The notes: generated by a model from the sequence alone, not told the origin. Counted from the stretch's first letter, positions 16,801 to 37,002 are shown. The stretch is DNA of 58,184 nucleotides from an uncultured Candidatus Saccharibacteria bacterium (GCA_964362545.1 CAYIEM010000002.1:1-58184), one strand, 5' to 3'. Made by a program: numbers and translations.

Positions 16801-16807
16801 CCAACAT

Positions 16808-17133: not shown

Positions 17134-17284
17134 ATTTTTGTATTTACTCTAAAAATTGGATAAATCTACAACAAGAACGCAAAAATTTTAATACTTTTTT
17201 AGTATTACACTTCTAACCTCATTTGTCAAGTCCGCGTTATGGTTCAATACCTTGGAATCACCCTAAGTGGTTTAAGGTATGGTC

Positions 17285-17401: not shown

Positions 17402-17479
17402 AGATAAATTTAATGCATAATTGAAAATTAAGGAATAATTACACGCCGCCAGATTTAATAATCATTTAAATAATTTTTT

Positions 17480-18913: not shown

Positions 18914-18980
18914 ATTACACCAGACCAGATCATTTATATCAAGTAGACTTCGAAATTCTCTGGTTTATAATAGTAGAAAG

Positions 18981-20405: not shown

Positions 20406-20448
20406 AAGTGGTAAGCTTTAAATACGAAAAACACAGGTAGTGGAAGTT

Positions 20449-20859
20449 TCAGGAATTTTTGATTCTTTCCCGCAACTCAGTAGTGGAATAGGAGTGGTTT
20501 CGGTTGTTGTAGTAGATTTTTATGGGTAAATCGTGACCGGTAAATTTTTTACCTTTCCAGTCGGCTCCGATTATGCGTATGTCAGGTTTCAGTTCTTTCA
20601 AGATGTTATACAAATCATCTTCTGTTCTGTAGATAATAATTTCATCCACATACCGGTTTGCTTTTAGCTGGATGTATCTTTCCTCCAGTGTCTGAATGGG
20701 TGTACTTTTCTTCTTTCCTCTGTACTCCAAAGGGGCTACGCTCGGATCATCATGAAGCCCCACAATAAGCCAGTCGCATTGTTTCTTGGCTTCTTCCAGC
20801 ATCAAACAATGCCCCGCATGGAGCAAATCGAAGGCCGAAAAAGTGATTCCTTTTATCAT
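20449..20859 (-). CDS. Cytidylyltransferase, TagD-like (glycerol-3-phosphate cytidylyltransferase family)
   Basis: FSAFDLLHAGH (HxGH) and C-terminal HSYSTTELRERI (RTxGISTT-like). 136 aa. Confidence 0.75.
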   Translation of the reverse strand: MIKGITFSAFDLLHAGHCLMLEEAKKQCDWLIVGLHDDPSVAPLEYRGKKKSTPIQTLEERYIQLKANRYVDEIIIYRTEDDLYNILKELKPDIRIIGADWKGKKFTGHDLPIKIYYNNRNHSYSTTELRERIKNS

Positions 20860-20973
20860 ATAATTTTAATTACGAACATAATAATACCCAAAATATACCA
20901 CACTTTTTATTAAAATCAAGACCCCCTGTTGAGTTTTTCGATGCGACATTTAAAGTCATATAAACATGCTCTG

Positions 20974-22656
20974 TCATTCCACGTCAGGAATTAATGCAGG
21001 AATTAGCAACTTATCTCCTATCTCTATCCGGTGCGGGTTAATAATATTGTTCGCCTCCACTATAACGTCATACTTTTTGGCATTTTTGTAAAATCTCTTG
21101 GCAATTGAGGAGAGATTGTCGCCCCGCACCACTTCATAATATACTTCATATTTTTCTTCCAAATATTCGGCTTGGTACACATGAAGCCACAGGGTCCTTG
21201 AAAATTGACGTTTTTCAAGTTTCCGAAGATTCGAGTCAAAATAATCTTTTACTTCCGTGGCACCCTCCAGGTTATCCGCCATAAAGAGAAAAATTCGCTT
21301 ATGATGCCCTTTCACAATCTCCGCGTCCGCTTCAATCCTCTCCCTTGTAGCGAGAGGAATGGCGCCCTTGCGCTTATCCCAGATGGGCATCGAAGTCACC
21401 TGGGCCATACCCCGGTAATAATATTGAAAAGGATAAACGACATACGGAGGCGCCAAGGCGACTACGTCCCGCGGGGTTACCGTTTCGCTGATGTATCGAG
21501 CGGCTTCGCGGTAGTCTTCTTTGGCCGGGTTTTCGGCGCTCACATACTGGTTTACAAGTGATACCGCGATACCTAGAAACAGGATGAATGCGAATGCCTT
21601 CTTGCCAAATCCGCGCAGTTCGCCGAGCGTCCAGGCGAGAAGTATGTAGTAAAGCGGAGAAACTATAGACAAATACCTGGTAAGATACATCGGTTTTAAA
21701 AGCACGCTCACCCCGAACACGATAATGATCGGAAGCAATATGCCGGCGCACACAAGGATCATTCCTTTCCCCGAATACTTTCTTTTAGAGAGAAAAACAA
21801 ATCCGAGCAGAATTACCGCGGGCCACAGAGCGATAATGGTAGACGTAATGGCGTCTGACTGAAAACCGAAGGTGAATTCAAAGAAGCTCAAGGCAATATT
21901 GAAGGTCGTGGGACGTTCAAGCACTGGAGCGAGCGATCCTGATCCGTATGAATTTAAAAGCTCGTAGGCCCACGGAAAGAATGCCGCCGCCAGAATAACG
22001 GCAACCAGAATAAGCTTTATGAATATTTTTTTCTTTTCCGGAACATTGACGCTGAAATTACTCTTCCATGTGGTAAAGAAGAAAACTATCTGCGACAAAA
22101 GAACCAGAAAGAAAAAGTAATGGGTATACATTCCGATCAGGTTCACTGCCACGTAACCGGCGTAAGACAGGAAGCGATCGGTTTTCAGAATGCGAAGCAG
22201 AAAGTAGTACGAAAGGGTTGTGACCAGAATAAGAAGCGTGTACATTCTGATTTCCCGGCTATACCACACCCAGAATGGCGAAAGAGCGCCGATTGCCGTG
22301 GCCAGAAGGGCGATTTTTTCTTCAAAAAGCTCTTTCGCCAAAAAAAACAAGGCAAAAAGCGCGAGGACCCCTGGTATCAGCGAAAGAGCTCTCACGGATA
22401 CTTCTCCTGAACCGAAAAAATACATCCAGAAATGAAGCACTGTGTTGTGAAGCGGAAGATGCACGTTTTTCAGCATGTAGGTGGCGATGAAAGATGCCGA
22501 ATGCGAAGCCTGCCAGACGCTCTGTGCCTCGTCGAGGCGCAGGCTTTCCCCTCCCAAGTTCCAAAGCCGTAGAAAAACACCGACCGCTATGATAAGGGCC
22601 ACCAGGACGAACGTTTTCCAAAAATTATTTCTTGAGCTGGGTTCGGTGTTATTCAT
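20974..22656 (-). CDS. GT-C fold glycosyltransferase (family 39, ArnT/PMT-like) fused to a C-terminal LysM domain
   Basis: About 11 TM helices, first-loop LRLDEAQSVW motif, C-terminal YEVVRGDNLSSIAKRFY...IEIGDKLLIP (LysM). Its start overlaps the upstream stop in ATGAATAA. Confidence 0.8.
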   Translation of the reverse strand: MNNTEPSSRNNFWKTFVLVALIIAVGVFLRLWNLGGESLRLDEAQSVWQASHSASFIATYMLKNVHLPLHNTVLHFWMYFFGSGEVSVRALSLIPGVLALFALFFLAKELFEEKIALLATAIGALSPFWVWYSREIRMYTLLILVTTLSYYFLLRILKTDRFLSYAGYVAVNLIGMYTHYFFFLVLLSQIVFFFTTWKSNFSVNVPEKKKIFIKLILVAVILAAAFFPWAYELLNSYGSGSLAPVLERPTTFNIALSFFEFTFGFQSDAITSTIIALWPAVILLGFVFLSKRKYSGKGMILVCAGILLPIIIVFGVSVLLKPMYLTRYLSIVSPLYYILLAWTLGELRGFGKKAFAFILFLGIAVSLVNQYVSAENPAKEDYREAARYISETVTPRDVVALAPPYVVYPFQYYYRGMAQVTSMPIWDKRKGAIPLATRERIEADAEIVKGHHKRIFLFMADNLEGATEVKDYFDSNLRKLEKRQFSRTLWLHVYQAEYLEEKYEVYYEVVRGDNLSSIAKRFYKNAKKYDVIVEANNIINPHRIEIGDKLLIPALIPDVE

Positions 22657-24298
22657 GTCGCGTGTCTTTATTTTCCGGATTAAGCACCTCTCTTTCGATC
22701 ACGCCCAGCACAGCGGCCGTTTTCGGACGGAGCAGGGGTGCTTTCATAGAGAGAGTGTCCGAACGGAACCATGTTTTTATTCTCTCCGGTATCGCGCGCC
22801 ACGGATAAGCGACGCGGATAAAACCGAAAAAGAAAACAATATTAAAAACTATCCAGGCGCTGTTTGTCATCACGGAAGGCGTGAGCCCGTAGGTATAAAC
22901 GGCATAGACGATAGCGCAAATAGAGATAACAGCGTAGATGATGTTGGGCAGGGCGTACATGATATAGTTCCCGGCCTGTACAGTTTTTGGAGTAATGTTC
23001 CAGCTATCTTTCACTCCCGTCATGGCCGAGATGGTCGCGCGAAAAAAGACAAAGAAAGAACTCATGGACATCTGAATCGCCCGGAAAGTTATTTCGAACT
23101 TGGTCGAACGCATCAAAAGATAAATAGTCGAGAAAATGAAGGGGAAAAAATAAGCCATGAAATCGTGCGTGTTTTCCCTGATCGGAGAAATATTCGTCGT
23201 AATGACGACGATGGGAATGACGGCATCCACGAGCGCCACAAGCCCATTTAAGTAATAGCTCGAAGAATACAGATAGTGGATTTTCTGAGCAAAGGTAAGC
23301 CCCTTGCGGAAAAATGGATTATAGTGGAAAATCACATCGAGACAGCCTCTTGCCCACCGATACTGCTGTTTCGCGAAAGAGCCGAGATCAAGAGGCGCCA
23401 TTCCCTCCGAAAGCACTTCGGGAACATACACAGACTCATATCCTTTCCCGTGAAGCAAGAGAGAAACCAAAAAATCTTCCGTAATCGAATCGGTCGGAAT
23501 GCCTCCAACCATTTCAAGAGCGCTCCTTCTAAGCACGGCATTGGTCCCGCACCAGAAAGTCGCGTTATCAGAGTTCTTTCCTCGACAAATCGGGCCAAAA
23601 AAAAGCTCCTGCTGTTCCCAGGCCGCCTCAGTGAGATAATTTTCCTCGTGATTTGCGTAATACTGGGGTGTCTGTACCAAAGCCATTTTTTCGTTCTCGA
23701 AATACCCCATAGTGCGCGCCAAAAATTCCGGATAAGGCGCCTGGTCTGTGTCGAAAAGAGCGAAAAACGGCGCGTCTGTATGCTTTAGGGCATTGTTGAT
23801 ATTGCCCGCCTTCGCCCCGCCCGGAATATCACGGGTTATCACCGAAACGCCGAGCCTCTTTCCGAGATTTTCTACTTCCCGCCAGTTTTCTTTTTTAGCC
23901 ACAAACCCGTCGTTTAAAACGAACACCTGAAAATCAGGATACTCCATCGCTTTAGCCGCCAAAATAGTTTTTTCTGTAACCTTTAACGGCTCTCCGCAGG
24001 CTGTGATGAAAACGTCCACTCGCGGAGCATACGATCCGAGCATTTTCGGCTGGTAGGGCTTTTGATTACGGACCGTGAAAAGGTACCCGACCGCTTGCCA
24101 AACGTGATAGACTTCTCCGGCAAAGAGAAGTGAAAAAAGGATCCAGGAAGAAGCGTTCGAGAAATCCAGCCACCATCTCGCGTAAATTATCGTAAGGAAA
24201 AGACAAGTTATTATTAATATTTTTGGAACGATTTCGCCGGGCAGTATGAAAGGACGCTTCGGAGCCAGAGAGGCCAGAGAAGAAAAAGGAGTGTTCAT
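22649..24298 (-). CDS. Processive family-2 beta-glycosyltransferase, cellulose synthase (BcsA)-like, without a PilZ domain
   Basis: VDVFITACGEP, VLNDG, KAGNINNAL, FDTDQ, VQTPQYY, FWCGTNAVLRR, ITEDF and QQYRWARG run parallel to the BcsA D,D,D,QxxRW motif set. 549 aa; the C-terminal tail has no RxxxR/DxSxxG. Confidence 0.8.
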   Translation of the reverse strand: MNTPFSSLASLAPKRPFILPGEIVPKILIITCLFLTIIYARWWLDFSNASSWILFSLLFAGEVYHVWQAVGYLFTVRNQKPYQPKMLGSYAPRVDVFITACGEPLKVTEKTILAAKAMEYPDFQVFVLNDGFVAKKENWREVENLGKRLGVSVITRDIPGGAKAGNINNALKHTDAPFFALFDTDQAPYPEFLARTMGYFENEKMALVQTPQYYANHEENYLTEAAWEQQELFFGPICRGKNSDNATFWCGTNAVLRRSALEMVGGIPTDSITEDFLVSLLLHGKGYESVYVPEVLSEGMAPLDLGSFAKQQYRWARGCLDVIFHYNPFFRKGLTFAQKIHYLYSSSYYLNGLVALVDAVIPIVVITTNISPIRENTHDFMAYFFPFIFSTIYLLMRSTKFEITFRAIQMSMSSFFVFFRATISAMTGVKDSWNITPKTVQAGNYIMYALPNIIYAVISICAIVYAVYTYGLTPSVMTNSAWIVFNIVFFFGFIRVAYPWRAIPERIKTWFRSDTLSMKAPLLRPKTAAVLGVIEREVLNPENKDTRHE

Positions 24299-24300
24299 GT

Positions 24301-25494
24301 TTATTCTAACTTACTTAGGTCTAGTAATCGTCCCGCATGAAAGGCCAGCCCAAACCATACCCAGTTCTGGGCGTAATAGCCGAGCGGTTTTGAAAAGTCT
24401 TCTATGTCCGGATCATAAAGAGGCGCGAGCTTACCCGCGAATATCTCCTTGGCGAGATCGGGGCGCTTGATTTTGAAATAAGGGTAAGTTGCAGCATACA
24501 TACTGGAGCTTTCGTCCTCACGTGCGGGTAGTCCGTCATGTGTGTAAGCGCTGAAGAGTATCCCTCTCTTCTCCCACTCTAAAGCAAGAAACCCGAGAGT
24601 GTCTAAATATTTTTCGGCTCTCTCGTCTTTATGCCATACAAAATCAAGCGCGACCCGCCAGGGAACGCGGAAAGCATCGTCTGAGAAATCGGTTGTCTTA
24701 TCCGCGTATGGCGGAGGTGTAGCAGAAAGAGTTTTCCTGTCGAAACTCGCCCAGTCCGGAGGTAGAGAAACGCTTGTTTTTTTATTGAGAGAGGATTCCG
24801 TAACTTTTTGCAGCATTTCATAGGAAGTATTTTTCACCGCCATCCAGTCGTGAATCCTATCCGCTTCCGCGAAGATCGGATAAGCATAAAACATATAATA
24901 GGAGGGATTAATGGAAAGAGAGCCGTCTTCTTTCGCCCAGTTTCCTGCCAGAAGATACGGTTTCCCGCTCACTGTCTGTATTTCCTTGTCCCAGATGTCT
25001 TTGAGTATTTTGATCGCCTGTTCCATATAATGGTCCTGATTCCACCGCTTGGAAGCAAAAATGAGCGCTAGGGCAATATCCTGGTCTGCATCGGAGGCAC
25101 TGTTTATGCCTCCCTCATCCCTAAGCACATCCCATTTTCCTTCCGCGTCTTTTCCCCATTTCCACGCGAATAATTCATCCGGACGCTTGCCTAGGTTGTG
25201 GTTGGTCCACTTGAGCACCTGGTCGAAAACATCCTTCTCGTCCATCCACACTGCCCTAAGGAGCGCGTACGATTGCCCTTCGGATGTGGTGATGTAGTCC
25301 CTATCGCGGTCTATGGTTCGTCCGTCTCTTTGGATTTTGTCTTTGTGTGCTATCCACAAGTTGTCCACCGCAAGGTTGGGATAGGTGTTGATGAACGTAG
25401 AATTATCCGAAATGGCGGAAATCGCCAAAGACGTAAGCAGGTGGCTTACAAGGACAATCGACGATATTATTTTTGTAAAAAATGTCTCTATCAT
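24301..25494 (-). CDS. GH8 endoglucanase (BcsZ-like position)
   Basis: ASDADQDIALALIFASKRW fits the GH8 signature exactly. N-terminal TM/signal segment. Ends 2 nt upstream of the synthase gene. Confidence 0.8.
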   Translation of the reverse strand: MIETFFTKIISSIVLVSHLLTSLAISAISDNSTFINTYPNLAVDNLWIAHKDKIQRDGRTIDRDRDYITTSEGQSYALLRAVWMDEKDVFDQVLKWTNHNLGKRPDELFAWKWGKDAEGKWDVLRDEGGINSASDADQDIALALIFASKRWNQDHYMEQAIKILKDIWDKEIQTVSGKPYLLAGNWAKEDGSLSINPSYYMFYAYPIFAEADRIHDWMAVKNTSYEMLQKVTESSLNKKTSVSLPPDWASFDRKTLSATPPPYADKTTDFSDDAFRVPWRVALDFVWHKDERAEKYLDTLGFLALEWEKRGILFSAYTHDGLPAREDESSSMYAATYPYFKIKRPDLAKEIFAGKLAPLYDPDIEDFSKPLGYYAQNWVWFGLAFHAGRLLDLSKLE

Positions 25495-25500
25495 AATGTT

Positions 25501-26496
25501 TTACGGATTTTCTTTGCTGATAAAAGGCGTCCCATCTAACATAGAGGCAGATCTATCTAAAAGAAAAGATATCCCTCCGAAGAGAAGCGTACCGAGAAGA
25601 GTTGAAATATCTACTGAAAGAGACGCGAGCACAGCGGTTTCCTTGCCGATTCCAGATAGAAGAAGACCCGCTACCCACCCCGCTTCCATAACTCCCAAAC
25701 CCGCTATGTTCGGTATGGTATTCGTGAAAATCTGAACCGCCCCTCCTACTACGATAGCCAAGGGCGGAATATTAAAACCAAACCCTTTCATAAAAAACCC
25801 ATAGGCTAAAAACATCGTTCCCCAAAGCAAAACGGAGTACAGGATGGCTCTTTCGTACACCCGGCACTCTTTGAATTGTCCGAAGGCGTTTACCACTTTC
25901 GTCAAAAACGTCTCCGCTTTGTTTCGAAAGGCGCCAACGGGGATAAGACGGAGTATTTTGCTGCCGAGAAAAAGCGCTAAAGACGGGCGGGTGGAAAGAA
26001 TAAACAACACGCCTACGCCAAAGACTATAACAGTGAAAGATATTAATGTCCACCAGAGCCCTGCTTTGCCCGCTGCTCCAAGGGTGAAAACAAGTCCCGC
26101 TGTCAGAAAGCAGGCCACGATAATAAAATCCAGAGTACGGTTCACAATCACTACGGCGAGGGAATCCGGGTACGGAATGTTACGCCCTTTCATCTGATTC
26201 ATAAACACGAACTCCCCTGCGGGGTTCGGGAGAATTCTAACAGCCATGTTGTGAATACCGGTAAGAATCGCCAGTGTTTTGAAAGAAAGCGCGGAAGGCA
26301 GGAACGCTTTCACCCTAAAAGTCCTCCACGCATAGGTCAAGAAGTACACCGCGGCGCCAAGAGTAAGCCAGAGCGCCGAGATATTTTTTTTCATTTCTCT
26401 AAGCGCTTCCATGTCTATGCCGGAAAGAACCCAAGTAATCAGAACTACTGTAATAACGGATGCAATTATTTTTCTGTTTCTTTGAAGAAAGCGCAT
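25501..26496 (-). CDS. Flippase-like polytopic membrane protein (LPG_synthase_TM / UPF0104 type)
   Basis: 331 aa, about 8 TM helices, N-terminal basic segment, GxxxxP-rich loops typical of the family. The assignment rests on pattern memory only. Confidence 0.6.
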   Translation of the reverse strand: MRFLQRNRKIIASVITVVLITWVLSGIDMEALREMKKNISALWLTLGAAVYFLTYAWRTFRVKAFLPSALSFKTLAILTGIHNMAVRILPNPAGEFVFMNQMKGRNIPYPDSLAVVIVNRTLDFIIVACFLTAGLVFTLGAAGKAGLWWTLISFTVIVFGVGVLFILSTRPSLALFLGSKILRLIPVGAFRNKAETFLTKVVNAFGQFKECRVYERAILYSVLLWGTMFLAYGFFMKGFGFNIPPLAIVVGGAVQIFTNTIPNIAGLGVMEAGWVAGLLLSGIGKETAVLASLSVDISTLLGTLLFGGISFLLDRSASMLDGTPFISKENP

Positions 26497-26521
26497 ATTA
26501 TTTTTTATAATATTCTGTATT

Positions 26522-27520
26522 TTATCCGACGATTCTCCGGATTACGTATGTCTTTTTGTTTTGGGATTCAAAATAAATCCTGGAAAGCACTTCTCCCAGT
26601 ATACCCAGAATGACGATCTGGATTCCGGCAAGGATCAGTGATACGGACAAAAGCAAAAGCGGGCGATTCGCGATTTCCTCTCCCCGAAAAATCTTGATAT
26701 AACTTAGATAGCTTCCTATCACAAGCCCGCTTCCCAAAAAGAGAACGCTCAATCCTCCAAAAAACCGGATGGGCTTCGTCAAAAACCGAATAAGGAACTG
26801 TATCACCAGAAGATCAAAAATGACCTTAAAAATCCTGCCCAGCCCATACTTAGATCTGCCAAATTTTCTTTCGTGATGATTCACTTCGATTTCGCCCACC
26901 TTGAAGCCCCCGATACTCGCGAAGGCCGGAAGAAACCTATGCATATCGCCGTAAAGGTGTAGACCTTCGAGCGCCTCCCGGCGGTAAGCTTTCAGGGTAC
27001 ACCCATAGTCGTGCAATCGCACGCCTGTGAGCGCTCCGATCAAGCGGTTGGCAAGTACGGAAGGAATCCGGCGGGTGATGAGCTTATCTTTCCGGTCCTT
27101 CCTCCAGCCGGAAACTACGTCGTACCCCTCTTCTATCTTCGATAAGAGGCGCGGAATGTCCGCCGGATCGTTCTGCAAATCGGCATCCATTGTGATGATT
27201 ATTCCCCCACGGGCAAGATCAAAGCCGGCAGACATAGCGGCCGTTTGTCCGAAATTCCTCCGCAATTCTATTCCCCTGACCCTAGAGTCTTTCTTCTGCA
27301 AGCGCTCAATGACCTTCTGTGTGCCGTCTTCGCTCCCGTCATTGATAAATAATATTTCCGAATTCGCCAGATTGCCGGAGGCTACGGCGGAGATCTTTTC
27401 ATAAAGCAAGGCAAGACTTTCCTCCTCGTCTTTTACCGGAATGACAATAGAAATAATGGGTGGCGCGATCTGCCCACCCGAGTCAGAAGGTATTATTTTT
27501 TTTATTGTGTATTCTTTCAT
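26522..27520 (-). CDS. GT2 polyprenyl-phosphate glycosyltransferase (GtrB/ArnC/DPM1-like) with two C-terminal TM helices
   Basis: ISIVIPVKDEEESL, INDGSEDGT, MDADLQNDP. The track start at 27532 is TTG, so I use the ATG at 27520 (MKEYTIKK). Confidence 0.8.
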   Translation of the reverse strand: MKEYTIKKIIPSDSGGQIAPPIISIVIPVKDEEESLALLYEKISAVASGNLANSEILFINDGSEDGTQKVIERLQKKDSRVRGIELRRNFGQTAAMSAGFDLARGGIIITMDADLQNDPADIPRLLSKIEEGYDVVSGWRKDRKDKLITRRIPSVLANRLIGALTGVRLHDYGCTLKAYRREALEGLHLYGDMHRFLPAFASIGGFKVGEIEVNHHERKFGRSKYGLGRIFKVIFDLLVIQFLIRFLTKPIRFFGGLSVLFLGSGLVIGSYLSYIKIFRGEEIANRPLLLLSVSLILAGIQIVILGILGEVLSRIYFESQNKKTYVIRRIVG

Positions 27521-27634
27521 TCCAAAATCCAATCCAAACTAATAATCCTAAAAACAAAGCCGATTATGTACCTACATTCTTAATAATGTATGGTCTATAA
27601 AATAATATAAAAACAAAAAAAAGTCAATAGCACG

Positions 27635-28375
27635 TTACTTCTCCACATTTATTGTCGCTGGTTTTTTTAGTTTATTGCGTATAGCAAATCCTATAATAAA
27701 CGCCAAAACAAGGATGATAACACCATAGACAATGTTTTTTGAGAGAGGAATTTCGGCGCTTATTGCCGTAGCTAGTTGAGTGTCCGCATCGATAGATGTC
27801 TGGTCGCTTCCTGCAGAACCCCCTGAGGTATTTGTCCCCCTATTGTTTGCTGTATTTTGAGAAGTTGTCGCAGAGAAAATGTTGGTCGACTGTGCTGTGG
27901 ATCTGGTGATGATAATCTGAGAATCATGCAAGGCCCCAGAGAAAGTGTCGCTGTTGGCGCCGTCAAGCACTTGTGTATCCTCATGAAGGACAATATTCGC
28001 AACACCTTCCCCTCTTGCCCTGAAAATAATCGAGCCGAATAATTTGTCCGTCGAAAAACCACCAGGATAGCCGGCAGTTTTCATAATAAAGCCGCTTGTC
28101 ACAACGTCATATCCGGAAACAGGGAGCGTTAGCCATGTCGGAGCAAAGGAGAATGATACGACCTCCAACATGTCGCCTGGATAAGACACGGCTATTCTTG
28201 AGGTGTAAACTTTTTCACCCGAAATAGGGACAACTGTCACAGAAACAGAAAACTGTTCACCCAATCTCACATTTTGGTTTGATGCCGAGAGAGATATGTC
28301 GGTTTCCGCCTCCACAAAAATCGGAGCTAGTGTGAGGGCGAGAAACATAAATAAAGTTAGCGTGATTTTTTTCAT
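27635..28375 (-). CDS. Cohesin-like domain protein with signal peptide and C-terminal TM anchor
   Basis: MKKITLTLFMFLALTLAPIFVEA, then LSASNQNVRLGEQFSVSVTV...IAVSYPGDMLEVVSFSFAPTW...GSIIFRARGEGVANIVL (cohesin-type beta-sandwich pattern). Ser/Thr/Gly/Asn linker, then TM helix VYGVIILVLAFIIGFAI. Uses the ATG at 28375; the track start at 28399 is TTG. Confidence 0.6.
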   Translation of the reverse strand: MKKITLTLFMFLALTLAPIFVEAETDISLSASNQNVRLGEQFSVSVTVVPISGEKVYTSRIAVSYPGDMLEVVSFSFAPTWLTLPVSGYDVVTSGFIMKTAGYPGGFSTDKLFGSIIFRARGEGVANIVLHEDTQVLDGANSDTFSGALHDSQIIITRSTAQSTNIFSATTSQNTANNRGTNTSGGSAGSDQTSIDADTQLATAISAEIPLSKNIVYGVIILVLAFIIGFAIRNKLKKPATINVEK

Positions 28376-28389
28376 ATTTTTATTACGTA

Positions 28390-30615
28390 TTATTTCCAAT
28401 TAACAATTAATAAATTAAAGTCGAATATATCAACAACATTATCGTTGTTAAAATCTGCCGGATTGTTCGGACCGACTTCTCCCCAATGGATGATCAAGGT
28501 ATTAAAATCAAAAATGGTAAAAACTTGGCTCGAGTTAGTATTACTGGTGTTCCTTCTTCTACTGCTTCCACCTCCGCCACCACTACTTCCCCCACTATCC
28601 TCCAATGTAGGGGCAGAAACGATAACCGTTCTAACGATTTCTACTGCCTGATTTAAGGCAGCATCGATTGCGTTATATGTAATTCTATAAGTGCCGACAG
28701 CTCCGGTATTCACTGTGTCTCCGCCGATAGCAACAACTACAGCTCCGTCTATATTGTCAGTAGCGGTAGCGCCTTGTTCGGTATAAGTTTCCCCGGTGTT
28801 TAGATTTATGGTTGCGGAACCAGTAAGTGTGATGATTGGGGGAATAGTATCAGTTGCCGGAGGGACTATAGTTGTAACTTCGACAATAGCATGATCTAAA
28901 CGTTTCACTGCTATGTTGCCTGCAAAGACTTGGCCATTAAGCCAAGACATTTGAGTATCAAAATCAGCCTTGTGCGTGTCAAAAGTATCAAATTCTGCTC
29001 CGGCTGGTATAATTCCGTGATAGACAAGAATCAGCCAAGTTTTATCTTCTTTCGCTTTATTTACCCATTCTTGAAACTGAGATAAGGTGGTTGTCGGTCT
29101 CATGTTTTGAACTCTAAGTCTGTAAACATTTAAATTGTCTCTTGAATTATATCCCTCATCTACTGTCCGATGAGCTCTGTAATAATCATTTATTTGGTCT
29201 ATAACCGCGGCATTGTAATCTCCGAAAGGACTGGAGAAACTAGTTACCGGAGTACCTCCGATTAAATTCTCTAGATATGCTTGCGGCTCTGAAAGCTCGG
29301 CGGCAACTTGCGCGGGAGAAATCTCTGTCAAAAAAGGATGCGTGATGGTGTGAGAACATATCTCGTGTCCGGCATTAAATAATGTATTGACAGAAGCAGG
29401 ACTTTCATCACCCACTATGAGAGGTCTAGTATTGAAACAATGTGTAGTATCAAAATCATAGTTTTCAAGCACTGGCAGAGCGTTGATTATGTTACCCTCT
29501 GTTATGTCATCAAACGTCAAAGTGATAAGAGGTCTGTTGAAACCACTGAATGTGTAAGGAGTAATGTGATAGTCATCCGACTGTATCCATCCATTTTCTC
29601 TAAGAATGAAAAATACCTGCACCCCTACAGAACCCATGGGTACAAAAAATTCACTGGAGTATTCTTGCCAGACTGTCGCACTGCTAGCTCCTGGAAATGG
29701 ATTTGGCAAACCAAAAAAAGTCGCGTTGCCGGCTCCATCTAAAAATCGAGCAACTACGCGAGGAGTGCTTCCTGTGCTTGACTTGTACCAGGCTGTAAAT
29801 CGATAGTCTCCTCCCGGAGTCAGTGGTTGTGGACTAAATACCCAATTTGCATCACCGTCGACGTAGTTTGTGACCGTAAACTTGACGCTTTTAGAACCAG
29901 TGTGTCCATCATTGTTTATATATTCGTAAGTGCGAGTGTTGTTGCCGAATCCGCCACGAAGCCATGCGCGGGGTGTGTCAGGATTGACAGAGATCTCCTC
30001 CAGAGAATTATTGGGAACCAAATCTGTCACACCGACAGATGAAACGGGTACCAAACTCGTATTATCTATTTCCAACCAGCCGTTACTCTCTAAGAGATGA
30101 TAAACAACCAACCATTCTGTAGTATTCAGAGTATGTATTTCAACACCAATTTCCTTCCAGGAACTTGGAGAAGCGGCAACTACCGGGACCCCGTCAGTGT
30201 AAGTAAACTGCGATGGAACAGCGCCATTTCCCTGACCTATCATTATATGCGTCGGCACATTGGATCTATAACTGTTCTTGTAGATGTAGTCGCTGTTCGG
30301 ATTAACTTTTACTATTTCGAAGGCCCATTTAGAATCACCGGAAGTATAATTGCTAATGTCCACTCTTGCTGCTTTACTGCCTACTCCATTAGCCCCCTCC
30401 ACCGGGTAAGTGAAAATCGCAGTATTGTTTTGGTAAGTACTCGTCTCCCAATTGTCTGGTGTCGTGAGAGTTGCGACCTCAAGTGAAGGATTCAAGATGA
30501 GGTTGCCGGGAATTATATCTTCTACCGCAGAAACATCTATCGGGATAATCGAAAAAATCGCAAGTCCGACAAACATTCCTATTTTTATTGAAATCAATTT
30601 TATGTGATTCTTCAT
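28390..30615 (-). CDS. Multidomain secreted polysaccharide deacetylase (CE4): two CBM-like modules, NodB domain, DUF5011/Ig-like domain, C-terminal dockerin
   Basis: NodB-type TLTFDDITEGN and HEICSHTITH. Ig-like PPIITLTGSATINLNTGETYTEQGATATDNIDG. C-terminal NTNSSQVFTIFDFNTLIIHWGE + DFNNDNVVDIFDFNLLIVNWK, which is two dockerin segments (D1,N3,D5,D9,D12 Ca-loop in the second). Start moved to the ATG at 30615 because the GTG at 30681 lies inside the predicted -10 box. Confidence 0.75.
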   Translation of the reverse strand: MKNHIKLISIKIGMFVGLAIFSIIPIDVSAVEDIIPGNLILNPSLEVATLTTPDNWETSTYQNNTAIFTYPVEGANGVGSKAARVDISNYTSGDSKWAFEIVKVNPNSDYIYKNSYRSNVPTHIMIGQGNGAVPSQFTYTDGVPVVAASPSSWKEIGVEIHTLNTTEWLVVYHLLESNGWLEIDNTSLVPVSSVGVTDLVPNNSLEEISVNPDTPRAWLRGGFGNNTRTYEYINNDGHTGSKSVKFTVTNYVDGDANWVFSPQPLTPGGDYRFTAWYKSSTGSTPRVVARFLDGAGNATFFGLPNPFPGASSATVWQEYSSEFFVPMGSVGVQVFFILRENGWIQSDDYHITPYTFSGFNRPLITLTFDDITEGNIINALPVLENYDFDTTHCFNTRPLIVGDESPASVNTLFNAGHEICSHTITHPFLTEISPAQVAAELSEPQAYLENLIGGTPVTSFSSPFGDYNAAVIDQINDYYRAHRTVDEGYNSRDNLNVYRLRVQNMRPTTTLSQFQEWVNKAKEDKTWLILVYHGIIPAGAEFDTFDTHKADFDTQMSWLNGQVFAGNIAVKRLDHAIVEVTTIVPPATDTIPPIITLTGSATINLNTGETYTEQGATATDNIDGAVVVAIGGDTVNTGAVGTYRITYNAIDAALNQAVEIVRTVIVSAPTLEDSGGSSGGGGGSSRRRNTSNTNSSQVFTIFDFNTLIIHWGEVGPNNPADFNNDNVVDIFDFNLLIVNWK

Positions 30616-30671
30616 GCTGAAACTATACCCGTGATTCTTTATATATTGATTTTTTAAGAATTGGTGTTTTG

Positions 30672-30699
30672 ATATTAACACAACATGTAACTAAAGCAA
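30672..30699 (-). promoter_or_regulatory. Sigma70-like promoter TTGCTT-16-TAATAT for the CE4/cohesin operon
   Basis: Read on the minus strand: cacTTGCTTtagttacatgttgtgtTAATATcaaaac. Confidence 0.5.
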
Positions 30700-30756: not shown

Positions 30757-30793
30757 AAAGGACATGTTCATGTCCGATAGATAGATGTCCTTT
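30757..30793 (-). promoter_or_regulatory. GGACAT-element copy A (AAAGGACAT-N19-ATGTCCTTT)
   Basis: 9-nt perfect arms. The loop is the reverse complement of the loop in copy B (shared CTATCGGACA). Lies 57 nt upstream of the -35 box of the CE4 promoter. Confidence 0.6.
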
Positions 30794-30813: not shown

Positions 30814-30839
30814 CAAAAAGAGAGAAGGAAACTTTCTCT
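30814..30839 (-). terminator. Rho-independent terminator of the 612-aa gene
   Basis: The minus strand reads AGAGAAAGTTTCCTTCTCTCTTTTTGG: a stem followed by a T-run, 23 nt after the stop. Confidence 0.55.
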
Positions 30840-30861: not shown

Positions 30862-32700
30862 CTAATTTATTGCGTTAGGCGTGAAATTTATTAGGTAGGT
30901 AGGTATCGCTAGGTTGAGATCAGGGCACATAATGTTGTTTACCTCTGTTTGCGTTGTTAGATAGAATATTCCTGTAGGCGCTGATATACCCCAAGGATTT
31001 AGAACTTTCTCTTTGCGAGCAAGCTGAAAGTTTTTCACTGCCATCTCCGTCTTAGAGCCGTATATTCCGTCTACCACAAGTCCGGCATTCATGTAATTAT
31101 TCAAGAAAATTTGAACTTTCTTAACTGTCTCAACGTTGTTGTTATATCCCTTGCGTAAATATTTATCTACATAGATACCGCAAGAAGTCTGCGCGCCAAG
31201 CACTTCGCCACCTTCATTTAGCTCGCTATTATCTCTTGAGACATATGAACTTGCATTGTTTGCATTACCGTCGGAATGACACCCGGGGTCAGCTTTATCT
31301 GTCAAACCATCCCTGTCATTGTCTTTTTTGTCAGCACATTGTCTGCGGCTACTTCCTCCACCCCCGCCGCCAGTATTGGTATTTGTATCATTTTCATCAT
31401 TATCTGACAGTGAGTCACAGTTAGGGTCGCCATTCGTGCTGGAGAAATCGATTTTACCATCGTTATCATTATCTATTCCATCTGAACATTGAGTAAGTAC
31501 TGCATTGGTCTCATTGTTATCAGTTGGAACATATGAGTTAGGATTGCCTGCATTTCCATCAGAGTGACAACCTGGGTCTAAAGCATCTACAAGTCCGTCG
31601 TTGTCATCATCTCCTGTATTAAAACAAGCAGGAACATCTGTCTCATCGTTGTCGTTTGGATTGTATGAACCAGTATTAGATGGATTTCCATCTGTGTGAC
31701 AACCTGGGTCTAATTCATCTACAAGAGTATCTTCTGAGTCATTGTTGTCAATATCATCAGAACATGCTGGTGTAGAAACTACTGCAGGATTTACTGTAAT
31801 GGACACGCTATCTGCACCTGTAGCGCCATCATCATCGGTAACTGTTAGAGAAAATACATACGTACCAGCTACAAGAGAGCTGGCAGTTGTGGAAACTGTA
31901 TCAGATGGATTTACATCTGAAGGTCCGGAAATAAAATTCCAAACATATGAGGTTATTGTTCCGTCTGAATCAGTACTACCTCCCCCGTTTAGAGTAATAG
32001 AGTTGGTTGGCAATGTAATTATTTGATCAAGACCTGCGTTTGCGGTTGGAGCAATGTTTGAGGGCAGACTACCGACTTCAACGGTCACATGAGCTACTGT
32101 TTCATCATCATCATCATCGTTGTGGTCTGTGTCGCCTTCATCCTCTGGCTCACTTCCGCAAATTATGCTATAGGTAGTATCGCTGGTTAAATTTCCAGTT
32201 GGAAAACTTCCAGAGAGTCCTCTAGAACCTGCCCAACCATTGACCCCATCAAATCCATTACAAAAAACTGCTTCATTCGAAGACCAGCGAACAATAGTAG
32301 AACTACCGTAACTTATGTTTTGATCGTCGGCCGTCAAAGTGACAGTAGGCTTTGGATAATTATCATCATCCTCGTCATCATTATCGTCGTCATTACTGTC
32401 TTCATCATCGTCGTCGTCATTATCATGTTCGTGACCATCGTCATCTTCATAGTTATCATCATGTTCCTCTGAATCCTCTTCTTCATCTTCATGATTATTA
32501 TCGTCGTCATCGTCTGAGTCATCATTGTCATCATTATCGTCGTCATAACCGTCATTCCCGGCATAAGCAATAGGAATCAAGCTCGTAGTAGAAGAGCTGT
32601 AAGAAAGAAGTCTGCCTAAATCCGCAGAACTCTCAGCAGTAACAAAACAAATTGCAAAAACAAAACTCAAAGTTAATAAAAGATTAATAATTTTTTTCAT
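30862..32700 (-). CDS. 612-aa secreted protein: poly-acidic tract, Ig-like and PKD domains, four Cys-bracketed D/N-rich repeats, C-terminal peptidoglycan-binding module
   Basis: Signal peptide. D/E/N/H tract at aa 49-114. PKD-like NAGLDQIITLPTNSITLNGGGSTDSDGTITSYVW...LTVTDDDGATG. Repeats C-x-D-x-[IDK]-DN[DN]-x-DG-x-x-D-x-x-DPGCHSDGN. C-terminal VKKVQIFLNNYMNAGLVVDGIYGSKTEMAVKNFQ. Confidence 0.8.
   Translation of the reverse strand: MKKIINLLLTLSFVFAICFVTAESSADLGRLLSYSSSTTSLIPIAYAGNDGYDDDNDDNDDSDDDDDNNHEDEEEDSEEHDDNYEDDDGHEHDNDDDDDEDSNDDDNDDEDDDNYPKPTVTLTADDQNISYGSSTIVRWSSNEAVFCNGFDGVNGWAGSRGLSGSFPTGNLTSDTTYSIICGSEPEDEGDTDHNDDDDDETVAHVTVEVGSLPSNIAPTANAGLDQIITLPTNSITLNGGGSTDSDGTITSYVWNFISGPSDVNPSDTVSTTASSLVAGTYVFSLTVTDDDGATGADSVSITVNPAVVSTPACSDDIDNNDSEDTLVDELDPGCHTDGNPSNTGSYNPNDNDETDVPACFNTGDDDNDGLVDALDPGCHSDGNAGNPNSYVPTDNNETNAVLTQCSDGIDNDNDGKIDFSSTNGDPNCDSLSDNDENDTNTNTGGGGGGSSRRQCADKKDNDRDGLTDKADPGCHSDGNANNASSYVSRDNSELNEGGEVLGAQTSCGIYVDKYLRKGYNNNVETVKKVQIFLNNYMNAGLVVDGIYGSKTEMAVKNFQLARKEKVLNPWGISAPTGIFYLTTQTEVNNIMCPDLNLAIPTYLINFTPNAIN
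32359..32556 (-). repeat. Low-complexity GAT/GAC/GAA/AAT-rich coding tract (aa 49-114, almost entirely D/E/N/H)
   Basis: Read directly. It generates the spurious alternate-frame ORFs 32334..32570 (-) and 32352..32573 (+). Confidence 0.85.
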
Positions 32701-33022: not shown

Positions 33023-34048
33023 ATGAAAAATTACCGTTTTGGACTTATATTCATTCTATGTTTTTTGACGCTTGTTTCAGTATATGTTGTCCTGCCAAAG
33101 AGAGAAGCCCCTTATTTAATTGAAAACCCTTCACAAGAGCTTGTGCAAGAGCAAGAATCTGCAAGATCAGTTAATTACATACCGACCGAGATAAATACTC
33201 CCATATCAACAAAATCCATTGTCCCGACTCCCCCATCTACTGCCATTACCCTACAATGGGGTTCATACGTCGGAGACGATATAAACGATCTTCCTCTATT
33301 TGAATCTCTGGTCGGAAAAAAGGTAGATCTTTATGCTGTCTTCGTGGGTTGGAACGATGACGATACTTTTCCTTTCGTTCTTAGCACAAAGGCGGGAGCG
33401 GATGGTAAAACTTTAGTAATCTTCTGGGAAACATCGTTTGGGTATGACGCTATTAACAATGGCGATAAAGATAGCTATATAAAACAATTTGCCTTAGATG
33501 CAAAGACTTATGGATATCCGGTCATCTTGTCTCCATTTGAAGAAATGAATTTAAATGAAGAGGCATGGGGTTATGGTATGAACGGCAATACTGCGGCAAA
33601 GTTTAAGACAGCTTGGATACGCACGCACAACATCTTTAAAGAAGTAGGCGCAATGAACGTAAAATTCGCTCTTACTTTCAACAACGTTACAATACCAGAT
33701 ATCCCCGGTAATAAAATGAGCGACTATTATCCAGGAGACATTTACGTTGATTATATAGGCCTAGACGGTTTTAATTTTAACGATCCATGGTTGACATTTG
33801 CTCAAGTTTTCGATGAAGCGATAGCTGATGCTTCACAATTTAATAAACCCATCTATATTCTCTCGACAGGGTCATGGCCTGGACCGCAAAAAGCTAAATG
33901 GATTACTGATGGACTCGGTGCTCATGTCAAAACATATCCCAATGTTCTTGGCTGGGTTTGGTTTAATGAGAACAAACCAGGAGATGGAAATTGGCTTGTA
34001 AACTCGGACAAGACCTCACTCGAAGCATTTAAGGCTGTTTTGCCCTAA
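33023..34048 (+). CDS. Secreted glycoside hydrolase, GH26-like TIM barrel (mannanase-type fold)
   Basis: Signal/TM segment. ILSPFEEMNLNEEAWGY compares with HEMNG-WFWWG, and YYPGDIYVDYIGLDGFNF with YPGDDYVDIVGxDxY. The family call is tentative. Confidence 0.45.
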   Translation: MKNYRFGLIFILCFLTLVSVYVVLPKREAPYLIENPSQELVQEQESARSVNYIPTEINTPISTKSIVPTPPSTAITLQWGSYVGDDINDLPLFESLVGKKVDLYAVFVGWNDDDTFPFVLSTKAGADGKTLVIFWETSFGYDAINNGDKDSYIKQFALDAKTYGYPVILSPFEEMNLNEEAWGYGMNGNTAAKFKTAWIRTHNIFKEVGAMNVKFALTFNNVTIPDIPGNKMSDYYPGDIYVDYIGLDGFNFNDPWLTFAQVFDEAIADASQFNKPIYILSTGSWPGPQKAKWITDGLGAHVKTYPNVLGWVWFNENKPGDGNWLVNSDKTSLEAFKAVLP

Positions 34049-34172: not shown

Positions 34173-35198
34173 ATGAAAATATCACTTCTAGTGCCGTGCT
34201 ACAACGAAGAAAAATCGCTTGAAGCATCGGTCAGATCCTGCCTAAATCAAACTCGTCCATTCGATGAACTTATATTCATCGATGATTGCTCAGGGGATAA
34301 AACCCCACAAATCTTGGCAAGTTTTGGAAATCGAATAATCACACATCGCGCACTTAAAAACACTGGTAATAAATCAAGTGCACAAGAATTTGGATTTCAG
34401 TTTGTTACAGGTGACATTGTCGTTACCACCGATGCCGATACTCTTCTCAAGTATAATTTTGTAGAGGAAATTGAAAAAAGTTTTAAAGATGAAGATGTGG
34501 TAGCCGTGGCTGGCGCTGTGAAAAGTCTACCGTATAATTGGCTAACTCTTTGTCGCGCATTTGATTACGCTTTAGGACAAAATATTCACAAACTTGCGCA
34601 GAGTTATTTGCGTTGCATATTCGTTATGCCCGGCGCGGCAAGCGGATTTCGCACGAAAATATTTCGTGAGCACATCACTTTCGACCACGACACTATTACA
34701 GAGGATCTAGACTTTACATATAAACTACACGACAAACGATTCAAAATCGTATACAACCAGCAAGCTATCTCGTATACCCAGGATCCATCTGATCTCTCAA
34801 ATTATATAAATCAAATGCGACGTTGGTTTGGTGGAGGATGGCAAAACCTGGTAAAACACCACAGAATAGTAGCGACCAAGCCGATCCTTGCCTTTGAGAT
34901 ATCAATCATTTACGCCGAAGGACTAATCTTTTCCATTCTTATTTTCGTGATGCCGCTCATTAACTTATGGCTCGGATTTTGGCTGCTAGTGGGGTATCTG
35001 CAGGTCACCCTCGTTTTTGCAATGTGGGCGGCATGGAAAGAAAAGAGGTGGACTCTCCTCTTGGCTCCCTTCCCTTACATTATTTTAATGTTCATCAACG
35101 CATACATTTATCTTGAACAATTTGTGAAAGAGGTCGTATTAAAGAGAAACAATCTTATCTGGTATAAACCAAGTCGGATTGCCATTAAGACCTCATGA
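34173..35198 (+). CDS. Processive GT2 synthase, PgaC/IcaA/NodC-like, with C-terminal TM helices
   Basis: LVPCYNEEKSL, IDDCSGDKT, TTDADT, ITEDLDFT and QMRRWFGGGWQN form the D,DxD,(T)ED,QxxRW set. 3-4 TM helices after the catalytic domain. TGA stop. Confidence 0.75.
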   Translation: MKISLLVPCYNEEKSLEASVRSCLNQTRPFDELIFIDDCSGDKTPQILASFGNRIITHRALKNTGNKSSAQEFGFQFVTGDIVVTTDADTLLKYNFVEEIEKSFKDEDVVAVAGAVKSLPYNWLTLCRAFDYALGQNIHKLAQSYLRCIFVMPGAASGFRTKIFREHITFDHDTITEDLDFTYKLHDKRFKIVYNQQAISYTQDPSDLSNYINQMRRWFGGGWQNLVKHHRIVATKPILAFEISIIYAEGLIFSILIFVMPLINLWLGFWLLVGYLQVTLVFAMWAAWKEKRWTLLLAPFPYIILMFINAYIYLEQFVKEVVLKRNNLIWYKPSRIAIKTS

Positions 35199-35781: not shown

Positions 35782-37002
35782 ATGGACGAATTTAACAAAG
35801 CTCTTGAAAAAGAATTGGAGGCCGGAGTCAATATTTCTATTATTAACGTGATAGATCATTTGATAAAGTACGCTAGCATCATGCACGCTTCAGATATTCA
35901 CATTGACCCTCAAGAAAAATCGGTTCGAGTCAGACTCCGCATTGATGGAGTACTAGAAGATGCTCACCCTCTGCCTAAAAATATACACGATGAGATAATT
36001 TCGCGCATAAAAGTTTTATCCGGGTTACGTACAGATGAACACAACACCGCCCAAGACGGACGTTTTAGAAGTATCATCTCCGATTTAGGTTCTGTAGACG
36101 TACGCGTTTCCATTGCCCCCACTTATCATGGAGAAAATGCCGTACTAAGATTGCTCTCTGATAACGCCGAAAATTTTACTCTGGAGACACTCGGCTTTAC
36201 AAAAGAAGATCGACAAAAGATATTATATGCGATAAAAAAACCAAACGGAATGATACTGGTCACTGGCCCTACCGGGTCCGGCAAAACAACTACACTCTAT
36301 ACCCTCATCAAGATGTTGAATTCCAAAGAGATATCTATTATTACCATAGAAGACCCGATCGAATACGCTGTGGGCGACGTGGAACAAATACAGGTAAATC
36401 CGAGAACTGGGCTCACTTTCGCCAATGGACTTCGTTCTATTTTGCGTCAGGATCCGAACGTTATCATGGTTGGAGAAATTCGCGACATGGAGACCGCCGG
36501 CATCGCGGTAAACACAGCCCTGACTGGACACTTGCTTCTATCGACGCTTCACACGAATGACGTTTCAACCACTCTTCCCAGGCTTCTCGACATGAAAATC
36601 GAGCCATTTCTTGTGGCTTCCACAGTATCCATCGCCATTGGGCAACGTTTAGTACGTAAAATATGCGACAAGTGCAAAGAGGCAAAAGTTGTGACCGATG
36701 AACAGTACAAGCGACTAGTCGAAACCATCTCAAACAAAACTTTATTGCAAAATAAAAGTTATTTTTACGGCAAGGGATGTGAATCTTGCAATAATACCGG
36801 ATACAAAGGCAGGATAGTCATCGCGGAGGTGCTTGTGGCTGATGAAGAAATCCGTACGGCAATTTTACGCAAGGCATCAGCCTCTGAAATAAAACAAATT
36901 GCAATTAAAAATGGAATGACTACTATGCTTATAGATGGTTTCAAGAAAGCGGTTTTAGGACTTACCACCGTAGAGGAAGTCCTGCGCGTGACTCATGAAT
37001 AA
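35782..37002 (+). CDS. pilB: Type IV pilus / T2SS assembly ATPase (short PilB/GspE form)
   Basis: Walker A GPTGSGKTTT, Walker B IMVGEIRD, His box TGHLLLSTLHTND, tetra-Cys CDKC...CESC. Confidence 0.88.
   Translation: MDEFNKALEKELEAGVNISIINVIDHLIKYASIMHASDIHIDPQEKSVRVRLRIDGVLEDAHPLPKNIHDEIISRIKVLSGLRTDEHNTAQDGRFRSIISDLGSVDVRVSIAPTYHGENAVLRLLSDNAENFTLETLGFTKEDRQKILYAIKKPNGMILVTGPTGSGKTTTLYTLIKMLNSKEISIITIEDPIEYAVGDVEQIQVNPRTGLTFANGLRSILRQDPNVIMVGEIRDMETAGIAVNTALTGHLLLSTLHTNDVSTTLPRLLDMKIEPFLVASTVSIAIGQRLVRKICDKCKEAKVVTDEQYKRLVETISNKTLLQNKSYFYGKGCESCNNTGYKGRIVIAEVLVADEEIRTAILRKASASEIKQIAIKNGMTTMLIDGFKKAVLGLTTVEEVLRVTHE

Follow-up and report, generated by a model that had tools for sequence, protein, structure and literature searches.

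Cohesin-dockerin pairs are best known from cellulosomes; elsewhere, the modules are usually annotated singly and their partners are unknown. Here, we describe a pair of adjacent minus-strand genes at positions 27635-30615 of a 58,184-nucleotide (nt) stretch of DNA (CAYIEM010000002.1:1-58184; "the window" below means this whole stretch), which belongs to a groundwater bacterium of the Patescibacteria (also called the candidate phyla radiation, CPR) and is a contig from groundwater metagenomes. The first gene encodes a secreted family CE4 polysaccharide deacetylase that ends in a dockerin, and the second encodes a small putative membrane protein with a single cohesin. The same gene order recurs across Patescibacteria with different cargo ahead of the dockerin, and we propose that the two proteins form a small surface-display device.

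In Clostridium (Acetivibrio) thermocellum, one envelope-anchored cohesin, that of OlpA (PDB 3ul4) or of OlpC (4dh2), binds the dockerin of a single enzyme without a multicohesin scaffoldin, and both structures are among the Foldseek matches of the window cohesin model. These proteins are attached to the wall of a cellulolytic Firmicute by surface-layer homology (SLH) modules and serve a large pool of enzymes encoded elsewhere. In contrast, the window protein has a transmembrane (TM) helix as its predicted anchor, its partner gene is adjacent, its host is a Patescibacterium, and its cohesin is so divergent that PDB sequence searches do not recognize it. Another small single-cohesin cell anchor for dockerin partners, also matched by Foldseek, is ScaE of Ruminococcus flavefaciens (type III cohesin, 2zf9), which sortase links covalently to peptidoglycan (LPXTG) and which binds the X-dockerin of the scaffoldin and of CttA. 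The window anchor has no sortase motif and ends instead in a TM helix and a basic tail.

The best structural likeness to the window cohesin is found in the noncellulosomal modules of Clostridium perfringens (2jh2, 2vo8, 2w1n, and 2o4e), by which carbohydrate-active enzymes are assembled outside cellulose degradation. These modules sit in large secreted enzymes and join the enzymes to each other; we know of no small dedicated membrane anchor and no conserved two-gene cassette among them. A noncellulosomal cohesin of Archaeoglobus fulgidus (2xdh) is likewise a Foldseek match to the window cohesin. Unlike the window anchor, neither this module nor those of anaerobic methanotrophic (ANME) archaea belong to a family built of signal peptide, cohesin, linker, and TM anchor, and they come from other lineages; to our knowledge, no cassette with swappable cargo has been described for them. 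A role in surface or cell-cell assembly has been proposed for "adhesins" with cohesins and dockerins, in some cases the products of neighboring genes, in ANME archaea and the sulfate-reducing bacteria associated with them (PMC10553843). The literature holds cohesin/dockerin proposals for consortia of ANME archaea with sulfate-reducing bacteria, and it holds others for Cloacimonadota and Omnitrophota.

On the side of the enzyme, a dockerin-borne CE4 domain is a known combination: that of C. thermocellum Xyn11A (2c71) is, together with the acetyl-xylan esterase of Streptomyces lividans (2cc0), the closest solved relative of the window domain. Xyn11A, however, is a multienzyme cellulosomal subunit that docks on a multicohesin scaffoldin, whereas the core of the window enzyme is normally dockerin free (no dockerin in any of the 119 other homologues listed). 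The CE4 enzymes PgaB and IcaB, of exopolysaccharide pathways, and PgdA and PdaC, which deacetylate peptidoglycan, act on cell-surface glycan, and what retains them is a lipid anchor, a TM segment, or a loop that binds the surface. PdaC (6h8l) and Bc1960 (4l1g) are structural matches to the window CE4 domain, and the window gene stands beside genes for a processive GT2 and a GH8; its retention would differ from that of these enzymes in being noncovalent and in relying on a separate anchor protein. An essential dockerin-domain protein of the cultivated Saccharibacterium Southlakia, SEML1_0315, has no adjacent anchor in the published gene table and was rejected as a cassette of the kind described here (PMC10633639).

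Results

Conserved gene pairing across Patescibacteria

The deacetylase gene occupies positions 28390-30615 (741 amino acids, aa; ATG at 30615, stop included), and the gene for the single-cohesin membrane anchor occupies positions 27635-28375 (246 aa; ATG at 28375, stop included). The stop codon of the former (TAA, 28392-28390) is separated from the ATG of the latter by a spacer of 14 nt, tacgtaataaaaat (28376-28389), on the same strand. Longer open reading frames (ORFs) are available for both genes, one of 763 aa from an alternative GTG at 30681 (28390-30681) and one of 254 aa from a TTG (27635-28399). In the database, the window's own deacetylase (P0008) is given a length of 728 aa, with its start at Met14 (region 30577-30615); we regard the ATG at 30615 as more plausible, because a start at Met14 would cut the basic n-region off the signal peptide. 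This reading of the ORFs, including both lengths of the deacetylase, agrees with an earlier note on the DNA, which had pointed to the two genes as a possible cohesin-dockerin pair. In homologous loci the spacing is similarly tight, with overlaps of a few bases in some of them.

In the first three homologue contexts examined, the anchor homologue came directly after a dockerin protein; the Dockerin_1 protein stopped 4 to 8 nt ahead of the anchor gene, and its cargo was different each time. For wider scans, the dockerin was represented by a profile made from the C termini of 43 proteins that adjoin anchor homologues elsewhere, with the window protein and its orthologue excluded. A scan of one genome per species gave 56 loci, 53 of them with upstream sequence, nearly all in Patescibacteria (Paceibacterota, Saccharibacteria, Wolfe-, Jorgensen-, Magasanik-, Kaiser-, Vogel-, and Nealsonbacteria, Kazan, and others). 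In 51 of the 53, the anchor was immediately preceded, on the same strand, by a hit to the dockerin profile. Metagenomes scanned with the family pattern yielded 80 loci, 73 of them evaluable, and here a dockerin-ended protein was encoded immediately upstream on the same strand in 71; in the remaining two, the upstream dockerin ORF stood at a distance of 228 and 680 nt from the anchor. (When metagenomes were scanned for exact matches to peptides of the window anchor, no relatives came up.) Taken together, the order of dockerin gene and then cohesin anchor was found in 122 of 126 evaluable loci, and there was essentially one dockerin in each locus of about 8 kb.

The cargo that precedes the dockerin ranged from about 125 to more than 1,300 aa, and its domains differed by locus: CHB_HEX_C_1, Pur_ac_phosph_N/fn3, Ig-like, beta-helix/NosD, LTD, subtilase, and several unknown small domains were found. 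Most cargos in the family are small nonenzymatic beta-domains, and a CE4 domain serves as cargo in the window only. Since the cargo is unrelated between loci, the dockerin is the sole feature with which the anchor could be co-conserved. Judged by gene order and profile matches, the window pair is one case of a cassette that is widespread in Patescibacteria and in which the cargo changes while dockerin and anchor stay the same.

At one locus of Candidatus Brennerbacteria (L057:2570-4537, JACPEK010000003.1), cargo, dockerin, cohesin, and TM helix are fused in a single ORF of 656 aa. Its two cargo domains are of the fn3 type and are joined to a degenerate dockerin (aa 421-453), the cohesin, and the TM anchor without an internal signal peptide; a protein-database search with its dockerin-cohesin part returned P0259 alone and not the fusion itself. 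Another locus (L024:1212-3951) has two tandem dockerin-ended genes before one anchor, and a complete 0.65-Mb Nealsonbacteria genome (CP179889.1) holds two separate pairs (L027 and L031) whose cohesin loops and dockerins are nearly identical. One cargo to one anchor is therefore not always the rule. Within the 58-kb window, where no second cohesin or dockerin was found, the one-enzyme, one-anchor arrangement suggested in the earlier note does hold.

Two further observations concern the cargos and the range of the family. A recurrent cargo of about 200 aa (upstream genes of L020, L021, and L025, and L045:2570-4705) has an N-terminal domain that starts with PQ(F/L)PHxFYG and has no Pfam match; at least four unrelated domain types occur among the small cargos. 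Typical cassettes were also found on short contigs of two metagenome-assembled genomes labelled Gammaproteobacteria (L041) and Planctomycetota (L042), and these may be misbinned Patescibacteria DNA rather than a real occurrence beyond the phylum.

The cohesin anchor

The anchor begins with a signal peptide (aa 1-23, ending in VEA before ETD; 28307-28375), as read from the sequence, and continues with a cohesin domain (aa 24-158; 27902-28306) that is assigned from its AlphaFold2 (AF2) model, from Foldseek, and from the Pfam matches of homologues. The motif KTAGYPGG (aa 99-106; 28058-28081), a hallmark of the family, lies within this domain. A linker rich in S, T, N, and G follows (aa 159-213; 27737-27901), predicted to be disordered, with an AF2 confidence (pLDDT) below 50 for aa 161-211. 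The C terminus consists of a predicted TM helix (aa 214-232), NIVYGVIILVLAFIIGFAI, which is followed by RNKLKK, and a putatively cytoplasmic basic tail (aa 233-246), RNKLKKPATINVEK; helix and tail are encoded at 27638-27736, and AF2 places a helix at aa 211-236. All four elements that had been noticed in this gene, namely, signal peptide, cohesin-like strings, S/T/G/N linker, and C-terminal TM helix, are present.

AF2 modeled aa 25-157 as a beta-sandwich, mostly with a pLDDT above 90. The top 50 PDB matches of this model in Foldseek were almost exclusively cohesins (E value, 1e-8), with the noncellulosomal C. perfringens cohesins 2jh2 and 2vo8 as the best (template modeling score, TMt, 0.80 to 0.85), and further matches included type I cohesins such as those of OlpA (3ul4) and OlpC (4dh2), ScaE, A. 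fulgidus 2xdh, 6kgc, and 1g1k. An unrelated Ig-like fold, which the earlier note had named as an outcome that would overturn its reading, is thus not what the model resembles. A homologue, P0004 (E value of 2.9e-19 to the window protein), clears the Pfam Cohesin cut-off with 29.1 bits and is named [quoted passage not shown] in the database, and the Pfam Cohesin model matched 17 of 53 anchors at an E value of 1e-3 or lower. The predicted fold is accordingly that of a cohesin, a flattened jelly-roll sandwich of about 140 residues, and homology points to the same assignment transitively, by way of P0004.

An exhaustive hidden Markov model (HMM) search for the family returned 448 clusters (50% identity) at an E value of 1e-30 or lower and 2,294 at 1e-3 or lower. 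Nearly all of the 150 best clusters are 220 to 280 aa long with the domain at residues ~25 to 160. An N-terminal hydrophobic segment was present in 120 of 122 complete family members and a C-terminal hydrophobic 17-mer in 117 of 122, followed by at least two K/R residues in 121 of 122; the linker has a median length of about 60 aa and is rich in T, E, A, P, and S. Conserved positions of the cohesin include an invariant W, AGYP, and a G, and a KTAGYPGG-type motif marks the subfamily. This layout suggests a topology in which the tail would be inside the cell and a flexible stalk would carry the cohesin outside.

The dockerin tail

The dockerin module, identified by the partner-dockerin profile, covers the last 53 aa of the deacetylase (aa 689-741; 28393-28551) and consists of two segments, as the earlier note had it. 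In type I dockerins (PF00404), two segments of ~22 residues stand in tandem, and each has an EF-hand-like Ca2+ loop and then a helix. Segment 1 is NTNSSQVFTIFDFNTLIIHWGE (aa 692-713), and segment 2 is DFNNDNVVDIFDFNLLIVNWK (aa 721-741). In segment 2 the Ca2+ ligands are canonical, with D, N, D, D, and D at positions 1, 3, 5, 9, and 12, likewise as stated before, and the helices of the two segments, FDFNTLIIHWG and FDFNLLIVNW, match the family consensus.

Against the profile of 43 partner dockerins, the tail scored 67.5 bits (E value, 1.2e-20) in an alignment across both segments. When the same profile was run against the six-frame translation of the window, the tail was the only hit (next E value, 0.6). 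The Pfam Dockerin_1 model matched 33 of 54 partner tails at an E value of 1e-3 or lower (best, 1e-11), and the NCBIfam GC-type dockerin model gave a marginal score for the window tail. In a comparison of the family profile with the PDB, the best matches were the dockerins 5lxv_B (2e-7) and 2y3n_B (1e-5), ahead of the EF-hand loops of calmodulin. Both the two-fold repeat structure and the length of a dockerin are present, and segment 1 keeps its helix and D12. By sequence homology, then, the tail would be classed as a type I dockerin.

The deacetylase

The 741-aa form starts with a Sec signal peptide, MKNHIKLISIKIGMFVGLAIFSIIPIDVSA (aa 1-30; 30526-30615), which was read from the sequence without a predictor: the n-region is basic, the core is hydrophobic, and the cleavage site is AXA-like (VSA/VED, cleavage before VED). 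Two tandem beta-sandwich domains of the CBM4_9/CBM22 kind follow (aa ~40-195 and ~200-355; 29551-30498). They are supported by homologues that bear the Pfam domain CBM_4_9 (PF02018), by a confident AF2 model, and by Foldseek, in which the best match was the tandem CBM22-1-CBM22-2 structure 4xup (E value, 1e-15).

The catalytic domain (aa ~360-585; 28861-29538) is of the CE4, or NodB-homology, type. Pfam Polysacc_deac_1 (PF01522) matched it with 80 bits against a cut-off of 23.1 (E value, 1.8e-22), in keeping with the CE4 identity proposed before. The motifs TFDD (aa 367-370) and HTITH (aa 422-426) are in place, and D369, D370, H422, H426, and H533 are invariant across an alignment of 63 homologues. 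The closest solved relatives by sequence are the acetyl-xylan esterases 2cc0 (E value, 3e-8) and 2c71 (6e-6), both at low identity, and Foldseek matched the domain with 7ax7, 4l1g, and 6h8l (TMt, ~0.7). Profile, predicted fold, and catalytic and metal-binding motifs all place the domain in CE4. Scores against the NCBIfam equivalogs HfsH, PdaB, NodB, and PgdA were all far under the cut-offs.

Behind the catalytic domain lies a Bact_surface_Ig-like domain (PF16403; aa ~594-667; 28615-28836; 52 bits; E value, 5e-14), for which AF2 predicts beta strands with a pLDDT of 55 to 83. A Gly/Ser-rich linker and then RRR (aa 672-688; 28552-28602), as read from the sequence, lead to the dockerin, and a Gly-rich linker ahead of the dockerin is common to nearly all partner proteins. 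The AF2 model of the full deacetylase (mean pLDDT, 81.7; predicted template modeling score, pTM, 0.72) is confident for the two beta-sandwiches, the CE4 barrel, and the Ig-like domain.

The CBM4_9 repeats and the CE4 core are shared by 386 homologues, mostly from Patescibacteria and in part from Actinobacteria and Verrucomicrobia. Among the 120 listed of these 386, the dockerin is carried by the window's own protein only, and most of the 120 stop directly after the CE4 domain. The dockerin is therefore a lineage-specific C-terminal addition to a common enzyme. One homologue (P0010; 53% identical) has a C-terminal PG_binding_1 domain in place of the dockerin, and tethering would thus suit this enzyme family.

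Genomic neighborhood

The pair lies amid a gene cluster of the glycan or exopolysaccharide type. Downstream of it, on the minus strand, are genes for a GtrB/DPM1-like GT2 (26522-27532), a flippase-like LPG_synthase_TM protein (25501-26496), a GH8 (24301-25494), a processive cellulose-synthase-like GT2 (22649-24298), and a PMT_2+LysM protein (20974-22656). Plus-strand genes encode a mutase of the PGM/PMM (phosphoglucomutase) family (17480-18913), a second GH8 (18981-20405), a GH26-like protein (33023-34048), and a further GT2 (34173-35198). These neighbors suggest, and we give this little weight, that the enzyme may act on envelope or exopolysaccharide glycan. Candidate substrates are an own-envelope or exopolysaccharide glycan that the adjacent GT2 and GH8 genes would make, and a glycan of a host cell.

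Upstream of the pair, a minus-strand gene (30862-32700) encodes a secreted surface protein of 612 aa with PKD and peptidoglycan-binding domains; its acidic low-complexity region, rich in Asp, Glu, and Asn, is very long, the "acidic double-disulfide" repeat occurs four times, and PG_binding_1 is the C-terminal domain. A second surface protein with PG_binding_1, this one with DUF11 repeats, is encoded at 12779-15523 on the minus strand. A few kilobases away, at 35782-38194 on the plus strand, are genes for a T2SSE-type ATPase (394 bits) and a T2SSF platform protein, which resemble those of type IV pili and type II secretion systems (T2SS). The GC content is 0.42 to 0.47 in a block at ~14000-30000, inside which lie the glycan genes and the pair, and 0.35 to 0.40 on both flanks; this GC-richer block may have been acquired horizontally.

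The 246-nt spacer 5' of the deacetylase gene contains a perfect palindrome, GGACATG-AA-CATGTCC (30760-30775, minus strand), and, directly after the gene for the PKD protein, a weak AT-rich hairpin with a T-run, AGAGAAagtttccTTCTCTcttttt (30815-30839, minus strand). The palindrome could be an operator and the hairpin a terminator. Neither was detected by a consensus scan for promoters and terminators around the pair, which found nothing convincing; in this AT-rich DNA, matches were near or above shuffle expectation.

Discussion

We consider it probable that the two proteins are a cognate, minimal, noncellulosomal cohesin-dockerin pair that serves as a surface-display device for the deacetylase. 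Both would be exported by the Sec pathway. The 246-aa protein, as a type I membrane protein, would be held in the cytoplasmic membrane by the TM helix at its C terminus, would keep the basic tail on the inner side, and would present its single cohesin outside the cell on a flexible linker of about 55 residues. The 741-aa enzyme would be released across the membrane and its C-terminal dockerin caught by the cohesin, presumably in a Ca2+-dependent manner, so that the deacetylase would act tethered near the envelope instead of diffusing away. This is in essence the interpretation offered in the earlier note, and the gene order kept in nearly all loci with varying cargo, together with the one natural fusion, lends it support. 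More generally, the recurring pair of dockerin cargo and cohesin anchor is very probably a plug-in system that holds secreted proteins on the surface.

Several results weigh against this interpretation or limit how far it can be taken. The earlier note had looked to the Pfam HMMs for a check, and applied directly to the window proteins, both models stayed below threshold: Cohesin (PF00963) scored 17.6 (E value, 0.0047) to 20.5 bits against a cut-off of 24.1, and Dockerin_1 scored 14.1 bits against 22.9 (E value, 0.054), for segment 2 only. What stood of that check is the recognition of relatives, in P0004, in about a third of the anchors, and in more than half of the partner tails, and the score of the window tail against the partner profile. 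Searches of PDB sequences with profiles of the cohesin family found no significant solved cohesin (best, 6kgc; E value, 1): the first profile gave nothing relevant, one with long insertions gave only Gly-rich and fn3 artefacts, and a trimmed one gave 6kgc alone. Because these searches came out near empty, the cohesin assignment rests on the fold and on the Pfam hits of homologues, and by the same profiles the anchor cohesin is a very divergent subfamily.

The dockerin raises points of its own. Loop 1 of segment 1 has N, N, S, T, and D at positions 1, 3, 5, 9, and 12 in place of the family pattern D, N, D, D, and D, so that complete Ca2+ ligation by this loop is doubtful; the stoichiometry of Ca2+ may be altered, and so may the usual dual mode of binding. 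The orthologue L001 has the same loop-1 pattern, and other degenerate variants occur in L007 and L073. In the AF2 model of the full-length enzyme, aa 675-741 have no secondary structure and a pLDDT of 23 to 49. The alignment has no depth there; since the query alone covers the tail region, we take this result as uninformative rather than negative. A possible trace of coevolution is a hint at most: all 12 pairs with a cohesin loop two residues shorter before KTAGYPGG, the window pair included, have atypical dockerins (scores of 81 bits or lower against a median of 93, significant by a rank test), and these pairs represent about four lineages, so that the covariation is confounded by phylogeny.

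As for the locus, co-transcription of the two genes is suggested by the 14-nt spacing; the sequencing runs that hold the region are of groundwater DNA only, and RNA runs were looked for and none were found. In the closest relative, L001, the anchor is followed by a gene for a SpaA-like giant protein and not by a GT2 gene. The neighborhood is therefore not kept, and the link of the pair to the adjacent glycan locus is weak.

Conserved pairing tells of functional coupling and not of the lifetime of a complex, and the membrane cohesin might bind the dockerin transiently, as a receptor for export, folding, or hand-over that lets go, for example, once Ca2+ or a target triggers release; the degenerate Ca2+ loop 1 of the window could weaken the interaction. 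We think this unlikely, however: signal peptide, cohesin, long flexible linker, and TM helix make up the architecture of a display stalk, cohesin-dockerin pairs are generally known as high-affinity assembly modules, and the fusion at L057 joins its cargo permanently to the anchor. The dockerin might also have its real partner on a different scaffold of the same cell or on a structure of a host cell, with adjacency a matter of co-regulation only. The near-identical modules of the two Nealsonbacteria pairs and the two dockerin genes per anchor at L024 do make cross-binding likely, and the relation need not be strictly 1:1. A partner elsewhere is nonetheless very improbable in view of a gene order that persists with unrelated cargos, the tight spacing, the natural fusion, and a window that holds no other cohesin or dockerin.

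Hardly credible, finally, is a dockerin that has lost Ca2+ loop 1 and is decaying in the window lineage, with the enzyme simply secreted and the pairing historical: segment 1 does lack the canonical D-x-N/D-x-D ligands and Pfam Dockerin_1 directly recognizes segment 2 alone, but in the L001 pair (anchor 70% and tail 73% identical) the two helices and the loop pattern are preserved, so that there is no sign of tail decay between the two relatives, loop-1 variants recur in other lineages that keep the pair, and both helices fit the family consensus. A display pair accounts better than any of these three alternatives for the conserved synteny, for the fusion, and for the conserved helices. A cellulosome, in which a scaffoldin with several cohesins gathers many dockerin-bearing enzymes for plant cell walls, was rejected in view of the single cohesin and single dockerin in the window and the mostly nonenzymatic cargos of the family; in function the pair is comparable to a cellulosome's anchoring step, without being a cellulosome itself.

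It is known that cohesin and dockerin domains occur in noncellulolytic prokaryotes, and some proteins of the anchor family are automatically annotated as cohesin-domain proteins. Full-text literature searches found no description of the two-gene cassette in Patescibacteria. What the cassette adds is a partner identified by gene order, in that a family of small membrane proteins with a single cohesin is encoded almost always directly after a secreted protein that ends in a dockerin. It is also possible, and we offer this tentatively, that a modular cassette found throughout Patescibacteria arms the surface of ultra-small, probably episymbiotic cells with glycan-binding domains, adhesin-like domains, and enzymes, the cargo being exchanged by domain shuffling before a constant dockerin; the window lineage would have recruited a widespread CBM-CE4 deacetylase, which may deacetylate a glycan of host contact or of its own envelope.

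If the binding is true, protein engineering could draw on the family as a large natural library of cohesin-dockerin pairs that are compact and orthogonal, some with only one canonical Ca2+ loop. For the window, the pair predicts cell-surface activity of the CE4 enzyme and so leaves fewer places to look for its substrate. Patescibacteria make up a large, mostly uncultivated share of bacterial diversity, and their cell-surface biology is thought to underlie an episymbiotic lifestyle. Should the two modules bind as proposed, hundreds of "hypothetical" proteins would gain a location and a partner, and the way in which many Patescibacteria retain secreted proteins on their surface would follow a simple rule that can be tested.

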